Origin: Nitrososphaeria archaeon
Lineage (GTDB): Archaea; Thermoproteota; Nitrososphaeria; JACIWG01
DNA length: 64,000 nt
Direction of reading: 5' to 3'
Assembly: GCA_963752255.1 (NCBI GenBank)
Contig: CAVVXT010000019.1
Coordinates: 320,001-384,000, forward strand
Each line of letters opens with the position of its first letter. Within the stretch, counting starts at the first letter, position 1. Both the position numbers and the translations under genes were made by a program. Of the stretch, positions 920 through 21,630 are shown in pieces. A model generated the notes under the pieces. That model was not told the DNA's origin. It searched no databases and worked only from the letters and a program-made list of their open reading frames with translations.

Positions 920-2097
920 TTAGATGAAGGAGGCAAAGCCGAGGAATCCGGTTATTACGATCAGAACTGACACTACCCAGAACACCGTCATACTCGTATT
1001 TGTTATGTTGATGTCCATTCATCACCTTGGCGTCTGAGACAAGCCTGCCAAGAAAGTACAGAGAAGGTATAATGATTATTGGGTATATGATCATCAAGTT
1101 TAGCATGAGCTGGATGTAGCCCGTCACTGTAGCTACAAGGATTACAGCTGGAAGGCTTTCGAGTGCGTAAACCGCGATGAATGAAGCCTTTGAGGTTTGG
1201 CCGGTTGCCTCTAGTACACCCCAGGCTGAGCCAAGGGATATGGTGATGAGGGCGAGAAAGCCGGCGAAGAGGAAGCTCATCCCCATGATTAGGGAAGCGT
1301 AGGGCCCGAAGAAAGGTAGCACTTTTGAAAGGTCTTCTACATTGATTAGGCTGCTTCCACCTGAAAGGCGTATCCCTACCACAACCACTATTATCATCAG
1401 AATCTCCGAGACTATAGCGCCGAGCAGGGTCTCTATGCGTTCATTCTTCAGTTCCTTCGCCTGCTTCTCCCTTCGGCAGTCTGCACCCGAGTGGAAGTAC
1501 AGCATCCAGGGCATTATGACAGCACCTACGTTTGCTGCAAGAAGATAATCGAAGGATGGGTTACCATACGGCTGGAGGGGAGAAAGACCTACGGAGAGAA
1601 GCTCTTTCATGTTGACGGGGAAGACGAGTGCTGAGGCCACTATTACGGCTACAACCAGGAAACTCAGCGGTATGAGTATTATCTCGGCCTGCCTGTATCG
1701 TCTACCAATTACAACCACCGTGTGAATCATGTACGCTCAATAGGATGCCCAGGAGAACCGGTATACCGAGGAGACTGAGGCCTATAGCTATCCCGGCATA
1801 CTCGGCTACATATTCGAGAAAGTCTGTCACACCCATAGGGATGGCGGCTACCATAGCCGCCCGTCTTCCATAGAATCTTCTTATGGCCGCACCTAGTCCA
1901 AGACACGAAGCAATTCCCAGGCTGCCTGCCGCATATTGAACGAGGAATAGAGGAAATATAAGTATCAGGAGGATGAATACCATTCTGTAACCGAAGCTGG
2001 CGCCAGCTTGAAGGGCTGCAATGATAGAGGGTATGTCTACGTCCGCTATCATTACAAGCCAAGCTGGCCCAAAATTCGTGAGCCAATCAACCACCAT
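920..2097 (-). CDS. NRAMP/MntH-family divalent metal transporter, two apparent frameshifts (~1720, ~990)
   Basis: FGPAWLVMIADVD (TM1), GAVIMPWMLYFHS (TM6). ORFs 1702-2097 and 891-1730 join; an alternative frame gives a final TM helix MTVFWVVSVLIVITGFLGFASFI* ending at 920. Confidence 0.85.
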
Positions 2098-2160
2098 AGA
2101 AGCACTATGGTTACGTATGTTAACAAAATTAAGTAGCTTTTTATGATCCGTAGTAATATG

Positions 2161-2199
2161 TTAGGCTAGCCTAATATATATGTATTTAGGTCTTCCTAA
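2161..2199. promoter_or_regulatory. Two DtxR/MntR operator boxes flanking an AT-rich TATA region upstream of the NRAMP gene
   Basis: Perfect palindrome TTAGGCTAGCCTAA (2161-2174) and TTAGGTCTTCCTAA (2186-2199), close to the DtxR consensus TTAGGTTAGCCTAA. Confidence 0.85.
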
Positions 2200-2447
2200 T
2201 ATCGCTAGCGATCGCAACAAATCCAGATCATCTGGGTGTTGCTAAATCTTGTAGGGATAAACATTATCTGTTAAGTTATTCGCCATGGAGGAAGTGGTTC
2301 TGTTAACTTAGTGTCTCGGATGGATTGGGAGTAGTCCATATTAACCAAAATAGGAAAACTCTGAACTTCATATGTTCTTAAGCACAATTCTTATCTTGGT
2401 TAAATGCAAAGTAACGAAAAGGCGAATGACATGGAGGTTTCAAAGAT

Positions 2448-2939
2448 ATGAGGAGGGTTGCGAAGAAAGGCAAATTCTCAGGTTTAATTCTTAATTTTGG
2501 TGGGGGAATATTTTATTTTTGCGGCTCGCTGGTATCTGTCTTGGATTTTATTATGATTCAGCAAGCAGCTTACCATTTTGACTTCGTAAGTCTCGTCGGC
2601 TTTGTTCTTCTCACAGCAGGATTAGGAACCCGCTTACAAGCTACAAGGACTCTGGGCAGATATTTTTCTCCTACCGTAAGAGTCTTGCCCAAACATAAGC
2701 TGATTAAACACGGCATTTACAGACATGTTAGACACCCTATCTATCTAGGTTCACTATTAGCCTTCTTTTCCATCCCATTGATCTTTCACAGCCTATACGG
2801 TCTCCTCGTTACGACTCTCGCAATCCCCTTTATCCTTTATAAAATACGAGCCGAGGAACAAATGCTCATAGAGAAATTCGGAGATGAATACAGAGATTAC
2901 ATTAAAAACAGTAAGAAACTTATTCCATATGTTTACTGA
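2448..2939 (+). CDS. Isoprenylcysteine carboxyl methyltransferase (ICMT/PEMT) family membrane protein
   Basis: LGRYFS, HKLIKHGIYRHVRHPIYLG, EEQMLIEKFGDEYRDY motifs. Confidence 0.88.
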   Translation: MRRVAKKGKFSGLILNFGGGIFYFCGSLVSVLDFIMIQQAAYHFDFVSLVGFVLLTAGLGTRLQATRTLGRYFSPTVRVLPKHKLIKHGIYRHVRHPIYLGSLLAFFSIPLIFHSLYGLLVTTLAIPFILYKIRAEEQMLIEKFGDEYRDYIKNSKKLIPYVY

Positions 2940-3326
2940 AGTGGCAAGTATGTTATAACAACCTCAAACAAGATGCACGTCATTTAGGCCAAAAGACTTA
3001 GCAGTATCTGTCCGACCACTCGCCGCAAGTATGAATCAATCACTACCCTTATACACCCACATGACCCATATGGTCTCAGCCAATCTTCCTTGCCATCATA
3101 TCCATCACGCTCGATTGAATAGCAGCTCTCGGGCGCACACACTCCCCTGACGGGTCCCAACAGCATCTTGCTCGTGGCGTAGTCGGCCACTCTTAGATCC
3201 TGACGCTAAGAGCACATCACCTATTACTTTGGCTTTATATCCTGAACACCGCCTCATGGACAAGAAAATGGATTAGCGGGTTCTCATAGAAAATAGAAAA
3301 TCTGAAAAGAAAAGGCTTAAATCAAG

Positions 3327-3557
3327 ATGAAGCTACCAGATTCGATTGTGGTCAGTGTAAGCATGGAAATATCCAAAAAAATAGAAGATGCTTATGTTCA
3401 GAGAATGCCTCGGGAACTTAAAGAAAAATTCGTTGCTCTCTCTGCTAATGAGCGAGCAGCGATCATTAAAGCTCTGTTGAGGTTCCATCAAGTAATGGAA
3501 GAAGAAACTTTTCAACTCGTATTAGGAATAGTTAACGCCCGTTTAGAGAAAAAATAG
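3327..3557 (+). CDS. Small hypothetical helical protein
   Basis: 76-aa ORF with ATG start and protein-like composition. Confidence 0.5.
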   Translation: MKLPDSIVVSVSMEISKKIEDAYVQRMPRELKEKFVALSANERAAIIKALLRFHQVMEEETFQLVLGIVNARLEKK

Positions 3558-3719
3558 TCTAAAGAGCCAACTCTGAACACCCCATACTAGCTATCAAATG
3601 ATTTGAAGCAGATAATAGTAGAGGATAGTAGAAGTATTTTAGCCGTCAAAGCCTCATCGATAAACTTGGCAGGAAAATCTACTTGAAATCCTGAAATGGC
3701 CAATAGTAATATCCCATAT

Positions 3720-3797
3720 CTAAACTTCATGGACAAAATTCTTAGTCAGATTATTCGGTGACACACCATGCATAACGAGCACAATGATAGTTTTCAT
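3720..3797 (-). pseudogene. Possible N-terminal remnant of a CbiX/SirB chelatase
   Basis: MKTIIVLVMHGVSPNN.. resembles the CbiX hydrophobic strand plus HG start, then stops after 25 aa. Confidence 0.35.
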
Positions 3798-3917
3798 GAT
3801 AGTTCCTTTTATTTTATCTCTTCTTATCGTTGATAAATTTATACAACGTTCCCATTAAGTGAGAGCTATTTGCCGGCAACATTTGTGGCCTTACCGCCGA
3901 TCGACCAGCTTGTATAA

Positions 3918-3955
3918 TAGGTATCTGCACCTAATTAGGTGCAGAAACCACCGGA
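3918..3955. repeat. Copy 2 of a ~40-bp palindromic direct repeat
   Basis: TAGGTATCTGCACCTAATTAGGTGCAGAAACCACCGGA contains the perfect 22-bp palindrome TCTGCACCTAATTAGGTGCAGA. Confidence 0.7.
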
Positions 3956-4258
3956 CCCGCTGCTTTTTAAAAATTCTAATAGCCTAGCTAAACCTTTTAT
4001 ATATAATATAGGAAAGAAAATGATTGCTTTATGTCAAACATAATCGCTCAGAAGCTTAAGGAGCAGACATCTTCGCTTGTGAGGACATTTTCTAAACGCT
4101 TAGCAACCATAAGAAGCCACCCCGAAACCAGTCTGTTGTGTAAACAGGTCTATAGGAACAAGGCTTTGACTAATGAGTTGTTGGTGATGATGAGCGTTTT
4201 GCGGTTGGAATCAATGCCTTTGACAGTATAATCAATTGAATAAAGATAGTTCTGGCGA

Positions 4259-4603
4259 TTATGCTATGTAAGATACCATGTTCTGAAATTTTGGACACCA
4301 ATTTGAGAATTCGCATACATCCTTAATTTTACAGAAAGTAAGGTCATTCGAATACATCGGATCATAGTTCTTACACTGGTTCCAGGGCTCTATCACTCCT
4401 ATTCCATAAAAACAGAGTCTCAGCCTAGACAACTTCTTTAAAGAGATAGGCTCCTTAGTATCCCAGTCCCATGCCGGAATCTTAGCTACTCTATCCTGGA
4501 ACCTTATTTCAATGAACTCGCCTGCCTTTAAAATCTTTCTTGCATCAATTGGCACCTTCACTGACGCCATAGCCCACTTTTTGCACGACCGACAACACTT
4601 CAA
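4259..4603 (-). CDS. Cys-rich hypothetical protein
   Basis: 114 aa, N-terminal CCxxC and several C-terminal Cys; no family recognised. Confidence 0.5.
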   Translation of the reverse strand: MKCCRSCKKWAMASVKVPIDARKILKAGEFIEIRFQDRVAKIPAWDWDTKEPISLKKLSRLRLCFYGIGVIEPWNQCKNYDPMYSNDLTFCKIKDVCEFSNWCPKFQNMVSYIA

Positions 4604-4787
4604 CTAGGATCACATCTAAACTCCTAATAGTGCGTAAGTCAAAGATAAAATCCTTTTTGCAGTTAATATAAATCCGTTCAGAATAGTTCAGACACTTGAA
4701 TAGAATATATTTGAATATGAAGAGTAACTCCTTTCCTAGAGCTGCCTCCGTTGCTTTTTAACTACATCATCTAAATATTCAGTGAGA

Positions 4788-6341
4788 CTAACTTTGGACA
4801 TCCGCATTCTTTCTTATCCTGCCCTTTTCGATATCCAAACCATTCCATGTTATTGAATAGCCCAGAGCTTCGATTACCTGGTACGGTTCTTTTATGTTGT
4901 ATGCTTCAACAGCCTCCAACGCGTCAGAGAGCTTTTCTATCCCCATTAGACTGGTTTCTATTTTTTTTAGAACTGAGTCGGATATGAAGTAGTCACCAAC
5001 CCTCTTGTAGCCTTCGAAGGTGAGGGTTGAAAGAACCTTCCTGGCAGATTCGACGCTAATCGAATTACCTTCTGCTATGTCTTCTATTCTTACTATATCA
5101 CCTGCCAATTTGATGTCCCTGAGCTTTGATGCATGAGACTCGTCTTCGATAACACCTTTCTCGCGCTCCTTTAAGTGTTCTATTATGGGCTTGATCGGCA
5201 CATCATCCTTATAGTATACGACTTGGATTTTTAGGTTGCGGAGTCTAGAGCACGCGTATTTTTCATTCACTGCGACGATTAAGTCAACATCTTTCACCGT
5301 TTCAAGCTTCGCGATCTTTCTTTCAAGATAGTCTGGGGTCCAGAATCCAACGATCTCCAGGTACACCTTCAAATTATATTTTGTAAACCTGAAGTCAGGT
5401 ATCAGCACATGTCTGCCCACAGGCAGAGGTTCAGGCTCTCTTTCGAGCACCCATCCGGAGCCGTAAGCATTGAAGGTTTTGGCAAATCGTTCTTCAACAC
5501 TGCTATCATATGTCTGTTTGGATGGCGTGTCTTCTGATCCAGTGCTCTCGATCAACCCCTTCATCTCATCGCTGGTAAGTCTGAATGTGTAGATTCTGTC
5601 TTTGTTCCTTCCCAGTACATCAGCTTTAATCCTCCAATAGCCCGATTCGATCACCGTTAGTAGAAGTTTCGCCAGCGCTGTTCCATACCTATCGGTCATT
5701 TTAAAGAGCGAAAGTGGGCCGTCAACAGTTACCTTATAACCATCGTCCTCACGTTCGACCGCATACATCAAGCCCAACCATTTAATAGATCTGAAGATGC
5801 TCTTCCAATTTCCTGAAACTGTGAACTCCAGCTTTAGGGACCTAAAGAGCATTGTCTGCGTTATGGAAAGGTTGTAAGACTTCAACAACGCATCCGGCGA
5901 CATTGGATTGAAGTCCTTTAGGATCAGTTCTTCTTCGACGTCGGAATATAGTATTTTTTCGAGAGCTTCAGCATGTATGCCGAGCTTCGCTGAGACGTCT
6001 TGGATAACTCTCCCCCTTTGCTCAACGTCTACTACTCTGACGTCGCTTGCCTTTTGGAACACCATCATCCTGGCTTCTGCGGGATCGATAGGCGCATCGG
6101 ATTTAAACACACTTCGTCTTTCGAGAAGAGCGAATAACCCTCTTACGAACCTGTAATCGAAGCCTTCATCTTCAAGGGTTCTCAGCTTTTCTATCATCTC
6201 TCCCTTCCTTCTACCCACATTGTTTCTAAAGACTTCAATGACCCGTCCAGCGAAGTTCAAGTCGCCTTCTTCCAAATGCGCGTATACGGGGTTAACCTGC
6301 CCATGTGAAACTCTAACCCTTAGAAGGTCATATGCAAGCGT
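4788..6341 (-). CDS. bax1: Bax1 (DUF790) endonuclease, XPB partner
   Basis: DGPLSLF..RYG, YDSSVEERF, IPDF..YLEIVGFWTPDYLERK. The frame stays open upstream of the track start (LAYDLLRVR..) to an ACG at 6341. Confidence 0.9.
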   Translation of the reverse strand, partial: TLAYDLLRVRVSHGQVNPVYAHLEEGDLNFAGRVIEVFRNNVGRRKGEMIEKLRTLEDEGFDYRFVRGLFALLERRSVFKSDAPIDPAEARMMVFQKASDVRVVDVEQRGRVIQDVSAKLGIHAEALEKILYSDVEEELILKDFNPMSPDALLKSYNLSITQTMLFRSLKLEFTVSGNWKSIFRSIKWLGLMYAVEREDDGYKVTVDGPLSLFKMTDRYGTALAKLLLTVIESGYWRIKADVLGRNKDRIYTFRLTSDEMKGLIESTGSEDTPSKQTYDSSVEERFAKTFNAYGSGWVLEREPEPLPVGRHVLIPDFRFTKYNLKVYLEIVGFWTPDYLERKIAKLETVKDVDLIVAVNEKYACSRLRNLKIQVVYYKDDVPIKPIIEHLKEREKGVIEDESHASKLRDIKLAGDIVRIEDIAEGNSISVESARKVLSTLTFEGYKRVGDYFISDSVLKKIETSLMGIEKLSDALEAVEAYNIKEPYQVIEALGYSITWNGLDIEKGRIRKNADVQS

Positions 6342-17799: not shown

Positions 17800-18504
17800 A
17801 TGAGGAGAGAATTTGTGAATAAGCTGACTCGTGATAAAATCGCGAAAATGGTTGATTACGCCTCCGCTCTAAACGCTAATGCTACAAAAGATGACATTAT
17901 CAGAAGCTGTGATGATGCTATTGAAAATAAATTTAACGCTGTCGCAGTAACCCCTGATTACGTTGCCCTTGCATCAAGACGACTTAAAGGCAGCGGAGTT
18001 AAAGTTCTAGCTGCCGTCGGCTTTCCTTGGGGTTCAAATGCGACTGAAACAAAGGTTGCAGAAACGAAACGTGCGATAGAGGATGGTGCTAAGGAAATCG
18101 ACATGGTCATTAACATAGGTTGGCTAAAGTCTGGAGACTACAAGTCCGTAGAAGACGACATCAGAGCGGTAGTCAAAGCCTCAAAGGAAGGAGGAGAAGA
18201 TATTATTGTAAAGGTTATCATAGAAACTGGCTACTTGACTGATGATGAAAAAATAAAGGCAAGTAGACTTATAAGAGACGCTGGAGCGGATTTTGTCAAG
18301 ACATGTACTGGAGTGAGTCCCGGCGCGGCAACAATACATGATATAGCCTTGATTTATAACGCAGTCGGAAAGGAAATAGGAGTAAAAGCCTCGGGTTCCG
18401 TAAATTACCTAGAAGATTTGCTACAACTGCATGGAGCCGGGGCAACAAGGTTCGGGTCTAGATCGGTGGCCTTGATAAACGCGTTGAAAAAGTTAGAGAA
18501 ATAA
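17800..18504 (+). CDS. deoC: Deoxyribose-phosphate aldolase
   Basis: VGFPWG, GAKEIDMVIN, VKVIIET, ADFVKT, GVKASG, GATRFG. Confidence 0.93.
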   Translation: MRREFVNKLTRDKIAKMVDYASALNANATKDDIIRSCDDAIENKFNAVAVTPDYVALASRRLKGSGVKVLAAVGFPWGSNATETKVAETKRAIEDGAKEIDMVINIGWLKSGDYKSVEDDIRAVVKASKEGGEDIIVKVIIETGYLTDDEKIKASRLIRDAGADFVKTCTGVSPGAATIHDIALIYNAVGKEIGVKASGSVNYLEDLLQLHGAGATRFGSRSVALINALKKLEK

Positions 18505-18726
18505 CCGTTTGAAGAAAGCTTTCGCTATCTTCGAATCCGTTTATAAAAAACAATCCATGTTGAACAAGTAGAGCTGCTTAATTGATCAAAATCTGTGGCA
18601 TGCTTTTTGACTTGTACTTGACGTTACATCAGTGATTTACTGTTTAGGTCCTCATCCTCTTGATTATTATGTAGATAGAACTCCAAGTGTCAATGGAATT
18701 TCAAGGTTATTACCGTTTCTATTAAC

Positions 18727-18788
18727 GGTTTTTATGCATCTGTTGTGCATGGGTTAATGGTGATGTTGGATATTGCGTTCATTGTGCA
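18727..18788 (+). repeat. Left terminal inverted repeat (IRL)
   Basis: GGTTTTTATGCATCTGTTGTGCATGGGTTAATGGTGATGTTGGATATTGCGTTCATTGTGCA; three TTRTGCA motifs. Confidence 0.88.
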
Positions 18789-19006
18789 AAACATTCATGT
18801 ATAATTTACATTGTAAACTTAGCTTTTTTGATGTGGGGGTGCTACATAGCTTGATTGACTTTGTAAATCTACTTAACTTTACAAGTTTACAGATTTACAG
18901 TCGCTTTGCTTCATGGTATGATAACGATATACATATAGACCTTGACTGTATTAGTTAACGACGTACAACGACGTTAACGCCGTAACGTTAACGATGTATA
19001 AACGGT

Positions 19007-19083
19007 TGCGACAGTCGGGATTTGAACCCGAGTCTCCTGCCCTGGCAAAGGTGGCGCATTTGACCTTACTATGCTACTGTCGC
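19007..19083 (-). tRNA. tRNA-Gly(GCC)-derived RNA with aberrant anticodon arm, inside the IS element
   Basis: GCGACAG/CTGTCGC acceptor + A73, D-stem GCAT/ATGC, T-arm TCGGG-TTCAAAT-CCCGA. The anticodon arm is 19 nt (CCACCT-TTGCCAG-GGCAGG) with two mismatches; no encoded CCA. Confidence 0.8.
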
Positions 19084-19103
19084 AACCTTTTCATTCTTAA
19101 CCA

Positions 19104-19122
19104 TGAGATAAAAACCTTTCCA
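19104..19122 (-). promoter_or_regulatory. BRE/TATA promoter of the tRNA-like gene
   Basis: Minus strand GGGAAAGGTTTTTATCT, about 25 nt upstream of the RNA 5' end. Confidence 0.6.
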
Positions 19123-19184
19123 TAATAATGATGAGACAAAAACCCTCAATTGCATTTAAATACCTGTAATTTAATTATTTTATA

Positions 19185-19355
19185 TTATTCTAACCTTTTA
19201 ACTTTCATAATTTTTCTGCTATCTTGGGTGATTATTTCCCAATCTAATACGTCTCCTATTTTTAAGTTCATTTCCTTTGCGATCTTTTCTGGTATAGTTG
19301 TTCTCATCGAAGGCGATATACTGCTTGCCTTTGCTATGGTTGATTTTTCTCCCAT
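19185..19355 (-). CDS. AbrB/MazE/SpoVT-family DNA-binding protein, 56 aa (not in the ORF track)
   Basis: MGEKSTIAKASSISPSMRTTIPEKIAKEMNLKIGDVLDWEIITQDSRKIMKVKRLE; TIP..I...L.I..GD.L.W signature. Confidence 0.88.
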   Translation of the reverse strand: MGEKSTIAKASSISPSMRTTIPEKIAKEMNLKIGDVLDWEIITQDSRKIMKVKRLE

Positions 19356-19358
19356 GTT

Positions 19359-19451
19359 ATACCTTATCTACCTATATGTTTATATACTTTATCTACCTAT
19401 ATTACCTATACATATATATACCTATTATACCTATAGGTATGGTAGGTAGAT
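19359..19451. promoter_or_regulatory. TACCTAT repeat array in the divergent abrB/transposase promoter
   Basis: About six TACCT(A/T) copies including TCTACCTATAT twice, the palindrome TACCTATAGGTA and an inverted GTAGGTAGA. Confidence 0.6.
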
Positions 19452-19455
19452 TAAT

Positions 19456-20591
19456 ATGATGGATATGCGACCTAACAGAGCCCTACAGATATTAGCTCAA
19501 GAAGATAACGTAAAAAGAGTAGACGCTAACACATACAAAGTTAAATCACAATCGGGGAAAGGTATTTATCAAGTAATAAGAGTAGGTGAAGAATGGAAAT
19601 GCGAATGTGCAGATTACATCAAAAGGGGAATTGCATGCAAGCACATATATGCAGTTACTTTTTCACAGGCTCTAAGACAACAGGTTAGCTCAACAGAAAA
19701 GCTGGGAATAGAGCTTACAGAAAAACCCGATAACTGCATTTACTGTGACTCAGGAAATGTAGTCAAAAGGGGATATGCTTATGAGAAAGGAAAGAAGGCT
19801 CAGCGTTTCTGGTGTAAAGATTGCAATAAGACCTTTGTGCTGAATTACGGATTTAGGGGAATGAAGAACGATCCTAAGGTAATTACTGTGGCTTTAGATG
19901 CCTATTTTAGAGAAATGAGCCTTAGGGATGTCAGAGATCATCTGATACAATTTTACGGGGGTTAAAGTGCATTATGTAACAATTTTAAGATGGATTTCCA
20001 AATACACTAAGATCATAGGAGATTATGTTGATGGATTCGAACCTGAGGTAAGCGACACTTGGCACGTAGATGAAATGATGATCGACGTTGAAGGAAAGAA
20101 GCAATGGCTCTGGAACGTCATGGACGATGACACACGCTTTCTTTTAGCAGAGCAGGATAAGCAGGAAAAGGGATGTGAGAAGTGCAAGGATACCTCTGCA
20201 TGACGCACAAGATAGAGCTGGGATAAGACTGAGATATGTGGTAACTGATGGATTAAAAGCCTATCCTGATGCAATAACGAAGGAATTTTATACTGTGGCT
20301 AATCCAAAAACCAAGCACGTGAGATTACCGAGTATAAGGGAAAGACCAAACAACAATATAATTGAAAGACTACATGGAACAATAAGAGAGAGAAATAAGG
20401 TTCAAAGAGGATTAAAGGAAGGGGCATCAACCAACATAGCTGAGGGACAGAGGATATTCTACAATTTCATAAGAGGACACATGGGAATAGACGAAGAAAA
20501 GACACCAGCGGAAAAAGCGGGAATAAGACTCAAATTGGAAGGAAACAAATGGATGGAACTAATAAAAAAGGCGACCGCAACACAATTTTAA
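19456..20591 (+). CDS. tnp: IS6-family DDE transposase with N-terminal SWIM and Zn-ribbon domains; two apparent +1 insertions
   Basis: CECADY..ACKHIYAV (SWIM), CIYC..CKDC, WHVDE / VTDG / NNIIERLHG catalytic triad. Frame breaks at G5 19957-19961 and ~20148. Confidence 0.9.
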
Positions 20592-20605
20592 CAAGTGGTT
20601 CTCAT

Positions 20606-21277
20606 CTATTGTTCTTGATTCTTGGTGAGTAACTGCGTTCTTCTTTTCCTTAAACTAATTCCCAAAGCGATTGAGCTTAATATTATGGCTACGACCGCCA
20701 GAATCGTGCTAAGTTGTGTGAATGAATTCATAAGCAAAGAGCCTATTGAGGGTTGAGATTCTGGGCTAATGAAAGTAGGTCTGAAAGTTGCCCAAACATC
20801 GCTTGAATTTACTTTCCCATTCTTTAGTTGTTCTTCGATATGCACGATTGGACTAAACCATCCGAGCCTTGCTTGTCCCTCACTGAGACCTACATCCTTA
20901 TCAAAGACCCTAATAGGCGGCATCGTTGTGCTGTACCCACTACCAATCACTGAAAGTTTTACATCTTGGGGTATCGGGGGGGTGCGATATAAGGCAGAGG
21001 GAGTGGAAATGTCAAGCAGAATGGACGTGACTCGTGTTTCAACAACATCAGTCCCAAAGGACTTCACAGTGAATGAAATCGGAATCGTGTAGAATTCACC
21101 AGTAACAAATGTTACGGGGCAATCAAAATTAAATTCGTAAACAGCCCCATTATTACTTGTTACATCAGATACAGTAGTACTCCAACCAGCTTGGGTCGCA
21201 TATGAACTACTCGGTAATAGAAACAACAATAATACAACGCATATAATTATGGAATAACCAATAGGACGAGTCATCAT
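20606..21277 (-). CDS. IS passenger: secreted protein with C-terminal membrane anchor
   Basis: N-terminal signal peptide, beta-rich body, C-terminal TM followed by RKRR. Confidence 0.8.
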   Translation of the reverse strand: MMTRPIGYSIIICVVLLLFLLPSSSYATQAGWSTTVSDVTSNNGAVYEFNFDCPVTFVTGEFYTIPISFTVKSFGTDVVETRVTSILLDISTPSALYRTPPIPQDVKLSVIGSGYSTTMPPIRVFDKDVGLSEGQARLGWFSPIVHIEEQLKNGKVNSSDVWATFRPTFISPESQPSIGSLLMNSFTQLSTILAVVAIILSSIALGISLRKRRTQLLTKNQEQ

Positions 21278-21454
21278 TTTAAACTAAAAAGCCTAAACTT
21301 ATATATAAAGATATACATAAATATAAAATGATAATTTTTAAGAAGAATCAATATTATCAAAATCAAGTCAAAAAATAAAAAACAAGAGCACACGATTTAT
21401 CAATATGACTGATATTCATAGGTCGTATAAGACTTGTCATAACCTTTTGAACCA

Positions 21455-21515
21455 TGCACAACAACGCAACACCAACATTTTCCTAAACCCTATGCACAAT
21501 GGATGCACAAGAACC
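21455..21515 (-). repeat. Right terminal inverted repeat (IRR)
   Basis: Revcomp GGTTCTTGTGCATCCATTGTGCATAGGGTTTAGGAAAATGTTGGTGTTGCGTTGTTGTGCA; three TTGTGCA motifs. Confidence 0.88.
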
Positions 21516-21630
21516 CTATTAACTGTTATAGTTACACTTTGGCCTACTGAAAGTATGTAAGCCAATAAGTAAACAGTTGTTTTCTTTTAAATAGTCAATA
21601 GTTAAATAGAAACTTCCCTTAACTGAATAT

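Follow-up and report, generated by a model that had tools for sequence, protein, structure and literature searches.

The present study analyzes a tRNA-Gly-like gene of 77 nt (19007–19083, minus strand) in a 64,000-nt stretch of DNA from a Nitrososphaeria archaeon, referred to here as the window, where the gene is carried by an insertion sequence (IS) of the IS6 family at 18727–21515. Related genes were found in three further elements, called L035, L036, and L098 after their loci, and the structure of the RNA and its conservation have solid sequence support in these four elements. Comparison of the four genes shows that selection keeps the L-shape of a tRNA (acceptor and T stems by compensatory change, the GG of the D loop, and the T loop) together with the nucleotides that mark glycine tRNAs, but does not keep a standard anticodon loop. 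This suggests that the elements put a tRNA-shaped RNA to some use of their own. The gene is probably, with real room for doubt, an RNA gene derived from tRNA-Gly and belonging to a clade of Nitrososphaerota IS6 elements, and not a damaged host tRNA, and its product would be a probably glycine-accepting RNA that is released from a transcript and does not decode in the normal way.

The tRNA-Gly-like gene and its conservation

The gene is the only tRNA reported by ARAGORN in the 64 kb of the window, as a tRNA-Gly(gcc) at 19004–19084 of the minus strand with its anticodon at the unusual position 39, and the Rfam tRNA model RF00005 matched 19007–19083 of the same strand with 48.5 bits, above the gathering score of 29 (E 2.6e-7 for the whole window). 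On the minus strand it reads GCGACAG UA GCAU AGUAAGGUCAA AUGC G CCACC UUUGCCAGG GCAGG in its 5′ part and, after GCAGG, AGAC UCGGG UUCAAAU CCCGA CUGUCGC A in its 3′ part. Drawn as a cloverleaf, the acceptor stem (GCGACAG/CUGUCGC) pairs in 7/7 positions with A73 next to it, the D stem (GCAU/AUGC) pairs in 4/4 and closes an 11-nt D loop with GG inside, and the T stem (UCGGG/CCCGA) pairs in 5/5 and closes the T loop UUCAAAU. The glycine marks G1-C72, C2-G71, G3-C70, and A73 are all present. The original prediction, which was made from the letters of the window, had described a tRNA-Gly mimic with perfect acceptor, D, and T stems and glycine nucleotides, and all of this is in the sequence; the Infernal-type score that it proposed as a check is the Rfam value given above. 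If GCC is the anticodon, the gene also has the complete archaeal glycine identity set given for A. pernix in the relevant part of PMC9976931 (C35, C36, C2-G71, and G3-C70).

The anticodon arm (CCACC-UUUGCCAGG-GCAGG, 19036–19054, with the GCC triplet at 19044–19046) is 19 nt long compared with a normal 17, and both the excess of 2 nt and the C-C and A-A mismatches that had been predicted were seen there. It may be drawn with five layers that include the A·A and C·C mismatches and a 9-nt loop, or, as by ARAGORN, with six layers, the same two mismatches, and the 7-nt loop UUGCCAG, and it was not formed in an unconstrained free-energy fold. Because the RNA scores above the threshold of the tRNA family but lacks the arm of a canonical decoder (5-bp anticodon stem, 7-nt loop, U33, and a purine at 37), it is named tRNA-like here.

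The three related genes were located at 2381→2307 (minus strand) in L035, with 42.3 bits against the Rfam model, at 2110→2038 (minus strand) in L036, with 35.2 bits, and at 1080–1155 in L098 (genome G191, contig C84), with 40 bits and an ARAGORN anticodon of “tccg”. When the acceptor and T stems of all four genes were aligned, 48/48 cells were paired, the 7/5 geometry was found in all four, and five of the 12 pairs, amounting to nine cells, had changed on both sides. The covariation score was 0.625, compared with 0.209 in shuffled alignments (0/500 of which reached 0.625) and with 0.06–0.22 when the pairing partners were slid. Covariation among copies in related elements had been proposed as a check on the prediction, and it was found as compensatory change in the acceptor and T stems, with no random decay in the four elements. 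Kept in 4/4 were G1-C72, G3-C70, A73, the D-loop GG, the T loop, and the anticodon CC, with C2-G71 kept in 3/4.

The anticodon stems, by comparison, are without common sequence (CCACC/GCAGG, CCCG/CGGG, CGCCG/CGGCG, and AGAGC/GCUCU). In their best-pairing registers the loops are UUUGCCAGG in the window and CCUUACCAA, GCAGCCAC, and CUUCCGAA in the relatives, and a drawing with 8 or 9 nt is possible for each, namely 9 nt for the window and L035 (where other registers give 7) and 8 nt for L098 and L036. A glycine triplet was present in every loop (GCC, ACC, GCC, and UCC). A non-standard loop with NCC in all four members argues for an enlarged loop as a family trait under selection. The earlier proposal that the anticodon arm had been remodelled under selection therefore stands for the abnormal, NCC-keeping loop, which recurs in 4/4, but not for the A·A and C·C mismatches, which occur within the anticodon stem of the window copy only and may be part of the decay of that element rather than design.

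It could be asked whether the two extra bases and the mismatches are simply errors of assembly or sequencing in a normal tRNA-Gly. The host genome (G000) is a draft of 19 contigs and 2.1 Mb, estimated to be 94.67% complete, and 19035–19055 is known from the assembly alone, sequencing run X1 (DNA, share 0.04) covering 18400–18632 and a 44-nt patch in the transposase only. Such an artefact is nonetheless very improbable, given that long neighbouring genes are intact, that four changes within 19 nt would be needed to restore a normal arm, and that a homologous gene with a non-standard loop is found in three independent assemblies.

Host glycine tRNAs and the question of decoding

The host has its own glycine tRNAs. 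ARAGORN reported 46 tRNAs in the host genome, and the canonical tRNA-Gly genes with anticodons GCC, CCC, and UCC scored 63.4, 59.3, and 57.0 bits, all with normal arms. A separate, normal tRNA-Gly(GCC), for which the original prediction had suggested looking, is thus present, on another contig (C14, 91666–91744 by ARAGORN and 91667–91741 in the comparison with the window gene) within an Ala-Gly-Phe-Ala tRNA cluster that is common to relatives. The window gene ranked 41st among the 44 Rfam matches above cut-off in the genome and was the lowest-scoring one without an intron, the three matches ranked under it being intron-bearing and 92–104 nt long. It is an extra gene and not the glycine decoder of the host. 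The two genes are alike in that their acceptors are one bp apart (GCGACCG in the host gene versus GCGACAG) and in that they have the same T loop, A73, and GCC, whereas the host gene has a 17-nt anticodon arm, its much higher score, a place in a conserved cluster, and a different D arm.

No full-length relative of the window gene was found by BLAST in 41 related genomes or in 401 genomes of the class, where the only matches were to the T arm or the 3′ half. A pattern spanning D arm to T loop had 0 matches in public genome contigs and 0 in viral contigs, and a 21-nt word from the D arm had one match in a metagenome contig, within a coding region and with no tRNA there. The best BLAST match was an orphan 3′-half tRNA fragment of 33 nt (L027, G320:C117:6788–6820), which is 94% identical to the variable loop, T arm, and acceptor of the window gene and is adjoined by a reversed T-arm fragment; it was dropped as a relative, being without a transposase and having nearby only a non-significant abrB-like match (E 0.14). 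The hosts of the L035, L036, and L098 elements own glycine tRNA genes, several of them with non-canonical introns. Host tRNA-Gly genes with non-canonical introns, some in the T loop or D loop, were seen at L130, L132, L137, and L141 (genomes G191, G402, and G401), and these were missed by ARAGORN and had low or partial Rfam scores.

The geometry of the loop suggests that the RNA does not decode normally, and an alternative explanation could be that it decodes abnormally, as a functional glycine tRNA of the sufD or SufB2 kind that promotes +1 frameshifting or reads quadruplets and thereby controls or rescues expression of the IS genes. All four RNAs have a glycine triplet in a loop that can be drawn 1–2 nt too large, the ARAGORN anticodon is the four-base one already mentioned in L098 and irregular in L036, and classical frameshift suppressors are characterized by additional nucleotides in the anticodon loop. 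The transposase gene of the window needs exactly two +1 shifts, which were located by aligning it to the intact homologues P0001–P0006. The first, near 19957–19961, falls at a glycine codon, where a GGGGG run has one G too many (homologues read F-H/Y-G-V-K-V), and the second is an extra base at gca-g-agc near 20148–20154 (homologues read L-L-A-S-R-I-S). The glycine tRNA sufD reportedly has a normal body with one extra anticodon-loop nucleotide, a combination also found in SufB2 and SufJ, and the L098 RNA resembles a tRNA-Gly(UCC) with one G added behind C36. These suppressors, however, arose as mutant alleles on the chromosome under laboratory selection, whereas the loops studied here have 8–9 nt with the extra bases at differing sites, and the RNAs stand beside intact genes that require no suppressor.

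No matching shifted gene that depends on the RNA was found among the four elements: three of the four transposases are intact, and the window sites are unmatched by a four-base anticodon based on GCC. Transposase open reading frames (ORFs) are uninterrupted in L035, L036, L098, and homologues P0001–P0011, so that no shift is needed there. In the window, the GGGG of the first site has no pairing with an anticodon based on GCC, and the second site (GCAG), an alanine position, is matched only if the loop is read as UUGC and a wobble is allowed, about 30 loop-by-site combinations being possible. In addition, the window loop has 9 nt and a mismatched stem, and L036 has A at the position of U33. A suppressor role of this kind is rather unlikely. 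Of similarly low likelihood is the wider proposal that the IS clade encodes a glycine-charged tRNA with a deliberately enlarged loop, which would be either a +1 or quadruplet reader or an off-ribosome cofactor or sensor coupling transposase control to the state of translation. If it were true in either mode, this would be the first RNA component of such a kind described for a DDE transposon.

Predicted release and glycylation of the RNA

The preferred reading, a glycine-accepting RNA released from a transcript, draws on the position of the gene as well as on its structure. In all four elements the RNA gene follows an ORF of the same strand. That ORF is abrB in the window (at a distance of 101 nt) and in L035 (281 nt), ORF106 in L036 (99 nt), and ORF164 in L098 (13 nt). 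The abrB gene that had been predicted upstream on the same strand is a 56-aa ORF at 19185–19355 (minus strand), which matches the Pfam family MazE_antitoxin/AbrB (PF04014) with 26.4 bits against a cut-off of 24.7, encodes a regulator of the abrB/MazE fold, and is 64% identical to its counterpart at the same position in L035.

As read from the sequence, the 5′ leader (19084–19122, minus strand) contains GGUU at 19084–19087, a TATA-like TTTTTATC at 19107–19114, and a motif GGAAAGG resembling a B recognition element (BRE) at 19115–19121, in AT-rich surroundings. The leader GGUU pairs with AACC of the 3′ trailer AACCGUUU (19000–19006, minus strand), in agreement with the GGTT/AACC extension of the acceptor helix that had been predicted, and the complementarity is longer than 4 bp, running over 16 nt at 94% as an inverted repeat of 19000–19015 and 19076–19091 that was also seen in the fold. 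The proposed BRE and TATA box are present as motifs, the latter at −31 to −24 with GGAAAGG ahead of it, but have no counterpart within about 45–50 nt upstream of the gene in L035, L036, or L098, which makes co-transcription with the upstream ORF likelier than a promoter of its own. Given a same-strand ORF just upstream in 4/4 and no TATA-like box in the three relatives, all GC-rich or tightly packed, the gene is read as the 3′ end of a regulator transcript.

In the mechanism that we propose, the RNA would be made as the 3′ end of a leftward transcript starting at the putative abrB promoter and would be freed from it by RNase P and tRNase Z. Release would simultaneously give the upstream mRNA a defined 3′ end, in the manner of archaeal t-elements. 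The freed RNA would probably be charged with glycine, and its abnormal loop would keep it from decoding as tRNAs normally do. Its place immediately after an ORF in 4/4 elements favours the idea of a processing signal, which was among the roles first proposed, and the conserved NCC triplet favours glycylation; a CC that is conserved amid changed neighbours in the loop suggests recognition by glycyl-tRNA synthetase. In the description available in PMC4326828, t-elements are tRNA-like structures upstream of 5S rRNA in Haloferax volcanii that serve as substrates of RNase P and tRNase Z and set the end of their neighbour. They resemble the present RNA in being a tRNA-shaped segment beside another RNA, the position downstream of an ORF being found here in 4/4 and co-transcription being predicted. 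The present RNA differs in having a full cloverleaf with glycine nucleotides, in lying in a mobile element and after an mRNA, and in that its processing is predicted.

Several points weigh against this reading. First is that the size of the loop depends on the register chosen, in that the window arm can be drawn as a six-layer stem with a 7-nt loop, L035 as five layers ending in C·A with a 7-nt loop (which ARAGORN calls Val-tac), and L036 as a 6-bp stem with a 6-nt loop, while the arm sequence in the window has, as stated, the assembly as its one source. Secondly, L036 has G8, G14, and no U33 (A is there instead), and L035 has a weak D stem. The absence of U8, A14, and U33 in one member and the poor D stem of another make full tRNA function doubtful in some members, and the claim that damage is confined to one arm, although it describes the window copy, fails for the family. 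Thirdly, there are only four elements, the conservation of NCC may be partly by descent, and the rough chance of CC in all four of a set of random 8–9-nt loops is about 0.02–0.03. The leader-trailer helix of the window, at about 15 bp, would hamper RNase P and tRNase Z and not aid them, and in L098 the orientation of the RNA gene relative to the transposase is opposite to that in the others. Finally, a pure processing signal needs neither D and anticodon arms nor NCC, and a charged tRNA is without obvious use to an IS; because the needs of processing and of charging are mismatched in this way, the two halves of the functional proposal do not explain each other.

Some of these departures would also be expected of a neutral relic, that is, a captured host or foreign tRNA-Gly gene that is decaying and has no function. 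The IS of the window is itself decaying, with its two transposase frameshifts; the two stem mismatches occur in the window copy alone; universal tRNA nucleotides have been lost in members (at positions 8 and 14 in L036, along with the weakened D stem in L035); and Rfam scores are low, at 35–48 bits. A relic would not account, however, for 48/48 paired cells in the acceptor and T stems, nine of them doubly changed, among elements whose transposases are only about 50–55% identical and whose non-coding flanks cannot be aligned, nor for T loop, D-loop GG, and NCC being kept in 4/4 at a position within the element that is kept as well. We consider loss of all function unlikely.

It is possible, with about the same low probability, that the RNA is a decoy or antidote, absorbing or resisting a nuclease or toxin that targets tRNAs or forming an addiction pair with the protein of abrB/MazE fold. 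The RNA gene adjoins the gene of an antitoxin-fold protein, at the place where a toxin gene would normally be, and every member retains glycine identity while its anticodon loop, the usual target of such nucleases, is altered. Yet none of the four elements contains a gene for a toxin or a nuclease, their extra ORFs matching no Pfam family, and abrB-type genes also stand beside transposases of clades without the RNA, flanked by operator-like repeats, as would fit a plain regulator of the transposase. An antisense or kissing-loop action was considered and dropped, complements of the loop in its own element being found only opposite the gene itself apart from a few chance 6-mers.

The insertion sequences that carry the gene

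That the gene is transposon-borne, as first claimed, is borne out by its place within a complete IS6-family element of 2,789 bp, 280 nt inward of the left inverted repeat. The same octamer CTATTAAC abuts both tips of the element as an 8-bp target-site duplication (18719–18726 and 21516–21523). The left inverted repeat (18727–18797, plus strand) has the tip GGTTTTTATGCATCTGTTGTGCA and aligns with the reverse complement of 21447–21515, which is the right inverted repeat (minus strand, its reverse complement beginning GGTTCTTGTGCATCCATTGTGCA) and is 90% identical to the end of an IS copy on contig C7 of the host. The repeats are GG-tipped and about 65 nt long, the two ends align over about 63 nt, and each has a second motif, TGCGTT..TGTGCA, which on the left lies about 45 nt further in. 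Between the abrB gene and the transposase, direct and inverted repeats of the type TATCTACCTATA occupy 19358–19454, with similar repeats at the same place in relatives, and these are likely an operator and divergent promoter region.

The transposase gene (19456–20591, plus strand) encodes an IS6 transposase of the IS240-type DDE class with a SWIM zinc finger, identified from ORFs, three-frame translation, Pfam, and intact homologues. It lies in three pieces, and with two +1 frameshifts this copy is no longer autonomous. The two C-terminal pieces match PF13610 with 21.3 and 25.6 bits, under the cut-off of 27 because the gene is split; the intact homologues P0001–P0011 all carry PF13610. It is followed by a passenger gene (20606–21277, minus strand) for a predicted membrane protein of 223 aa without a Pfam family. 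The element thus has the IS240/IS6-type DDE transposase of the IS6/IS26 group and its GG tips, cTGTt motif, and 8-bp duplication, but with four genes it is not a simple IS6 element (about 0.8–0.9 kb with a lone transposase gene and 15–20-bp repeats), and is therefore regarded as a passenger-carrying variant.

Relatives were sought with a profile of the closest transposases against species-representative genomes, which gave 43 loci, all in metagenome-assembled genomes of Nitrososphaerota type. ARAGORN found tRNA genes at six of these, and an aberrant Gly-like gene beyond a minus-strand abrB only in the two closest, L035 and L036. A six-frame search found the transposase family in 134/401 genomes of the class, and a scan of 30 loci after it (29 new ones and L082) gave one more aberrant gene, in L098, and one ordinary tRNA-Thr. 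The transposases of L035 (402 aa) and L036 (401 aa) are intact and both accompanied by abrB-type genes, and that of L098 has an uninterrupted ORF. The elements extend over about 2128–4204 in L035 (8-bp target duplication GGTTTTCG), 1880–4216 in L036 (AGAATTCA, 8 bp), and 1128–5237 on G191:C84 (CGATTCCA, 8 bp, with near-perfect 66-nt repeats), and the RNA gene is inside the element boundaries in all three. The common module consists of left repeat, tRNA-like gene, abrB-type regulator, operator-like repeats, SWIM-IS6 transposase, and right repeat. It is shared by elements whose G+C content ranges from about 40% to 65%.

A tree of transposases was made from 41 rows, of which 31 came from the 54 loci (those with a transposase ORF of 330–519 aa) and 10 from 11 database proteins, leaving out P0006, which equals the L035 protein, and the broken transposase of the window itself. 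The bearers of the RNA gene all fall into one short-branched group of 14 rows, comprising L098 with P0001 and P0002, and L035, L036, and L037 with P0003–P0011; the window is placed in this group through P0001, to which its transposase is 84% identical. The RNA gene is present in 4/4 elements of the group that have enough flanking DNA, the contig of L037 ending 252 nt beyond abrB. It was not found in the 27 rows of two long-branch clades, which were searched with ARAGORN and in part with Rfam and which include the IS copy on contig C7 of the host (L082). This negative rests partly on loci in genomes flagged as unpublished (L109 in G282, L111 in G131, L112 in G326, and L123 in G230), all four of which were scanned and two of which, L111 and L123, are rows of the tree. 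Other copies of the transposase in G000, G401–G404, and G191 (14 loci) had 0 tRNAs at the Rfam gathering level, and 11 other low-scoring tRNA matches in G191, G402, and G403 had no transposase or abrB nearby, several of them resembling intron-bearing host genes. The transposase profile had no match in viral contigs, and the extra ORFs of these elements had no Pfam family above cut-off.

A role at the level of DNA, as bait for integrases that target tRNA genes or in transposition itself, as a binding site or hairpin, could be suggested by the location of the gene, which is near one IS end in 3/4 elements, and by the many archaeal integrating elements that, as stated in a section of PMC6563490, have tRNA genes as targets. 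This is very unlikely, in that nothing has integrated into any of the four copies, features that matter to RNA and have no DNA role (T loop, D-loop GG, and G·U pairs) are conserved, and the distance to the IS tip varies widely, from 158–280 nt in three elements to about 550 nt in L098. Use of the gene as an attachment site was dropped, as there is no partial copy of it, and specifically no 3′-half duplicate, elsewhere in the host genome.

Compared with the IS6 family as characterized in the sections of PMC7986276 that define it (GG tips, CTGTT motif, 8-bp target duplications, about 0.8–1.5 kb, and 15–20-nt repeats), and with ISDsp3, the one passenger-carrying member described there, the elements studied here share the IS240-type DDE transposase, the GG tips and CTGTT, the 8-bp duplications, and the possibility of a passenger. 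They differ in their length of 2.1–4.1 kb, in having inverted repeats that measure about 65 nt and contain two repeated motifs, in an N-terminal SWIM domain and a divergent abrB-type regulator, and uniquely in the tRNA-like RNA gene. The word “tRNA” is absent from the text of the IS6 review PMC7986276, supplementary IS tables aside, and a tRNA-like gene in an IS6 element is undescribed in the text portions considered of PMC7986276, PMC13343696, PMC6563490, PMC7609411, PMC9976931, and PMC4326828, among them a 2026 survey of archaeal ISs, apart from the supplementary IS tables of PMC6563490 and PMC7986276. Passenger-carrying transposons are reported as not seen in archaea in the corresponding part of a survey of thaumarchaeal mobile elements (PMC6563490). 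Where IS6 elements have been described as minimal, with one transposase gene and short repeats, there is here a clade whose members have a regulator and also a tRNA-shaped RNA that is conserved: purifying selection acts on its body, and its anticodon loop is abnormal throughout. Such a find would indicate an RNA partner or a processing module in a DDE transposon, and would also make these elements a natural mobile source of tRNA-Gly variants with 8–9-nt loops, of interest for reading-frame maintenance and code expansion.

A connection between irregular tRNAs and transposons has precedent in bacteria. An association with transposon-related genes was described for irregular allo-tRNA-like sequences of soil Acidobacteria (Mukai et al. 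2017, as cited in PMC7609411), and, in the passages of PMC7609411 that deal with them, allo-tRNA-like sequences of soil bacteria have suspected links to transposons or toxin-antitoxin systems. Those sequences have 8/4 or 9/3 geometry and serine-type or other bodies and are bacterial, overlapping a transposon-related ORF, whereas the present RNAs have 7/5 geometry in all four, glycine identity, an archaeal host, and a fixed place inside a defined IS.

There were several further observations on these elements and their surroundings. Directly past the 3′ end of the RNA gene in the window, 18950–18998 consists of tandem 14-nt units with GTTAAC palindromes (ACGTTAACGCCGTA / ACGTTAACGATGTA), with a third GTTAAC close by. 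The spacer between abrB and transposase contains repeats of the type TATCTAC(C/G)T in 4/4 elements despite their differences in G+C content (window 19358–19454, L035 2835–2893, L036 2813–2887, and L098 1398–1497), and the abrB-type regulator probably has its operator here, at a predicted divergent promoter. In the same-genus genome G001, 322 nt separate deoC from a zinc dehydrogenase gene, and in the window 3.09 kb of unrelated DNA (18505–21596) stands there; 18505–18726 and 21524–21596, just outside the IS, are also unlike the spacer of G001, so the empty site is not preserved in that genome. A peat-metagenome contig from run X1 matches 18469–18632 with three differences. The membrane passenger (20606–21277) has a paralogue with 79% DNA identity at C3:165213–165866 of the host.

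The host also carries a second, more distant IS of the same superfamily (L082, C7:44517–46460), which consists of an abrB-type gene, a transposase gene that contains an in-frame TGA, and a small membrane ORF; its right end is 90% identical to window 21354–21515, and at this locus a matching left end and a tRNA-like gene were not found. The 4.1-kb element at 1128–5237 of G191 contig C84, which covers L098, L127, and L128, carries a methyltransferase-like ORF and a convergent restriction-like ORF as cargo, which may be a restriction-modification pair, and there is a solo IS end on contig C7 of the same genome. In other clades of the transposase family, elements such as L043, L039, L045, L101, and L111 are 2.4–3.2 kb long with GGTTCTGTT tips, and between the left repeat and the regulator, at the place of the RNA gene, they mostly have two co-directional ORFs of no Pfam family (L039 differs). 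The L035 element lies 133 nt upstream of a normal tRNA-Val(TAC) at 4338–4412, and at L067/L068 and L124 a tRNA gene lies about 100–130 nt upstream of the transposase match, so there may be a preference of these elements for insertion near tRNA genes.

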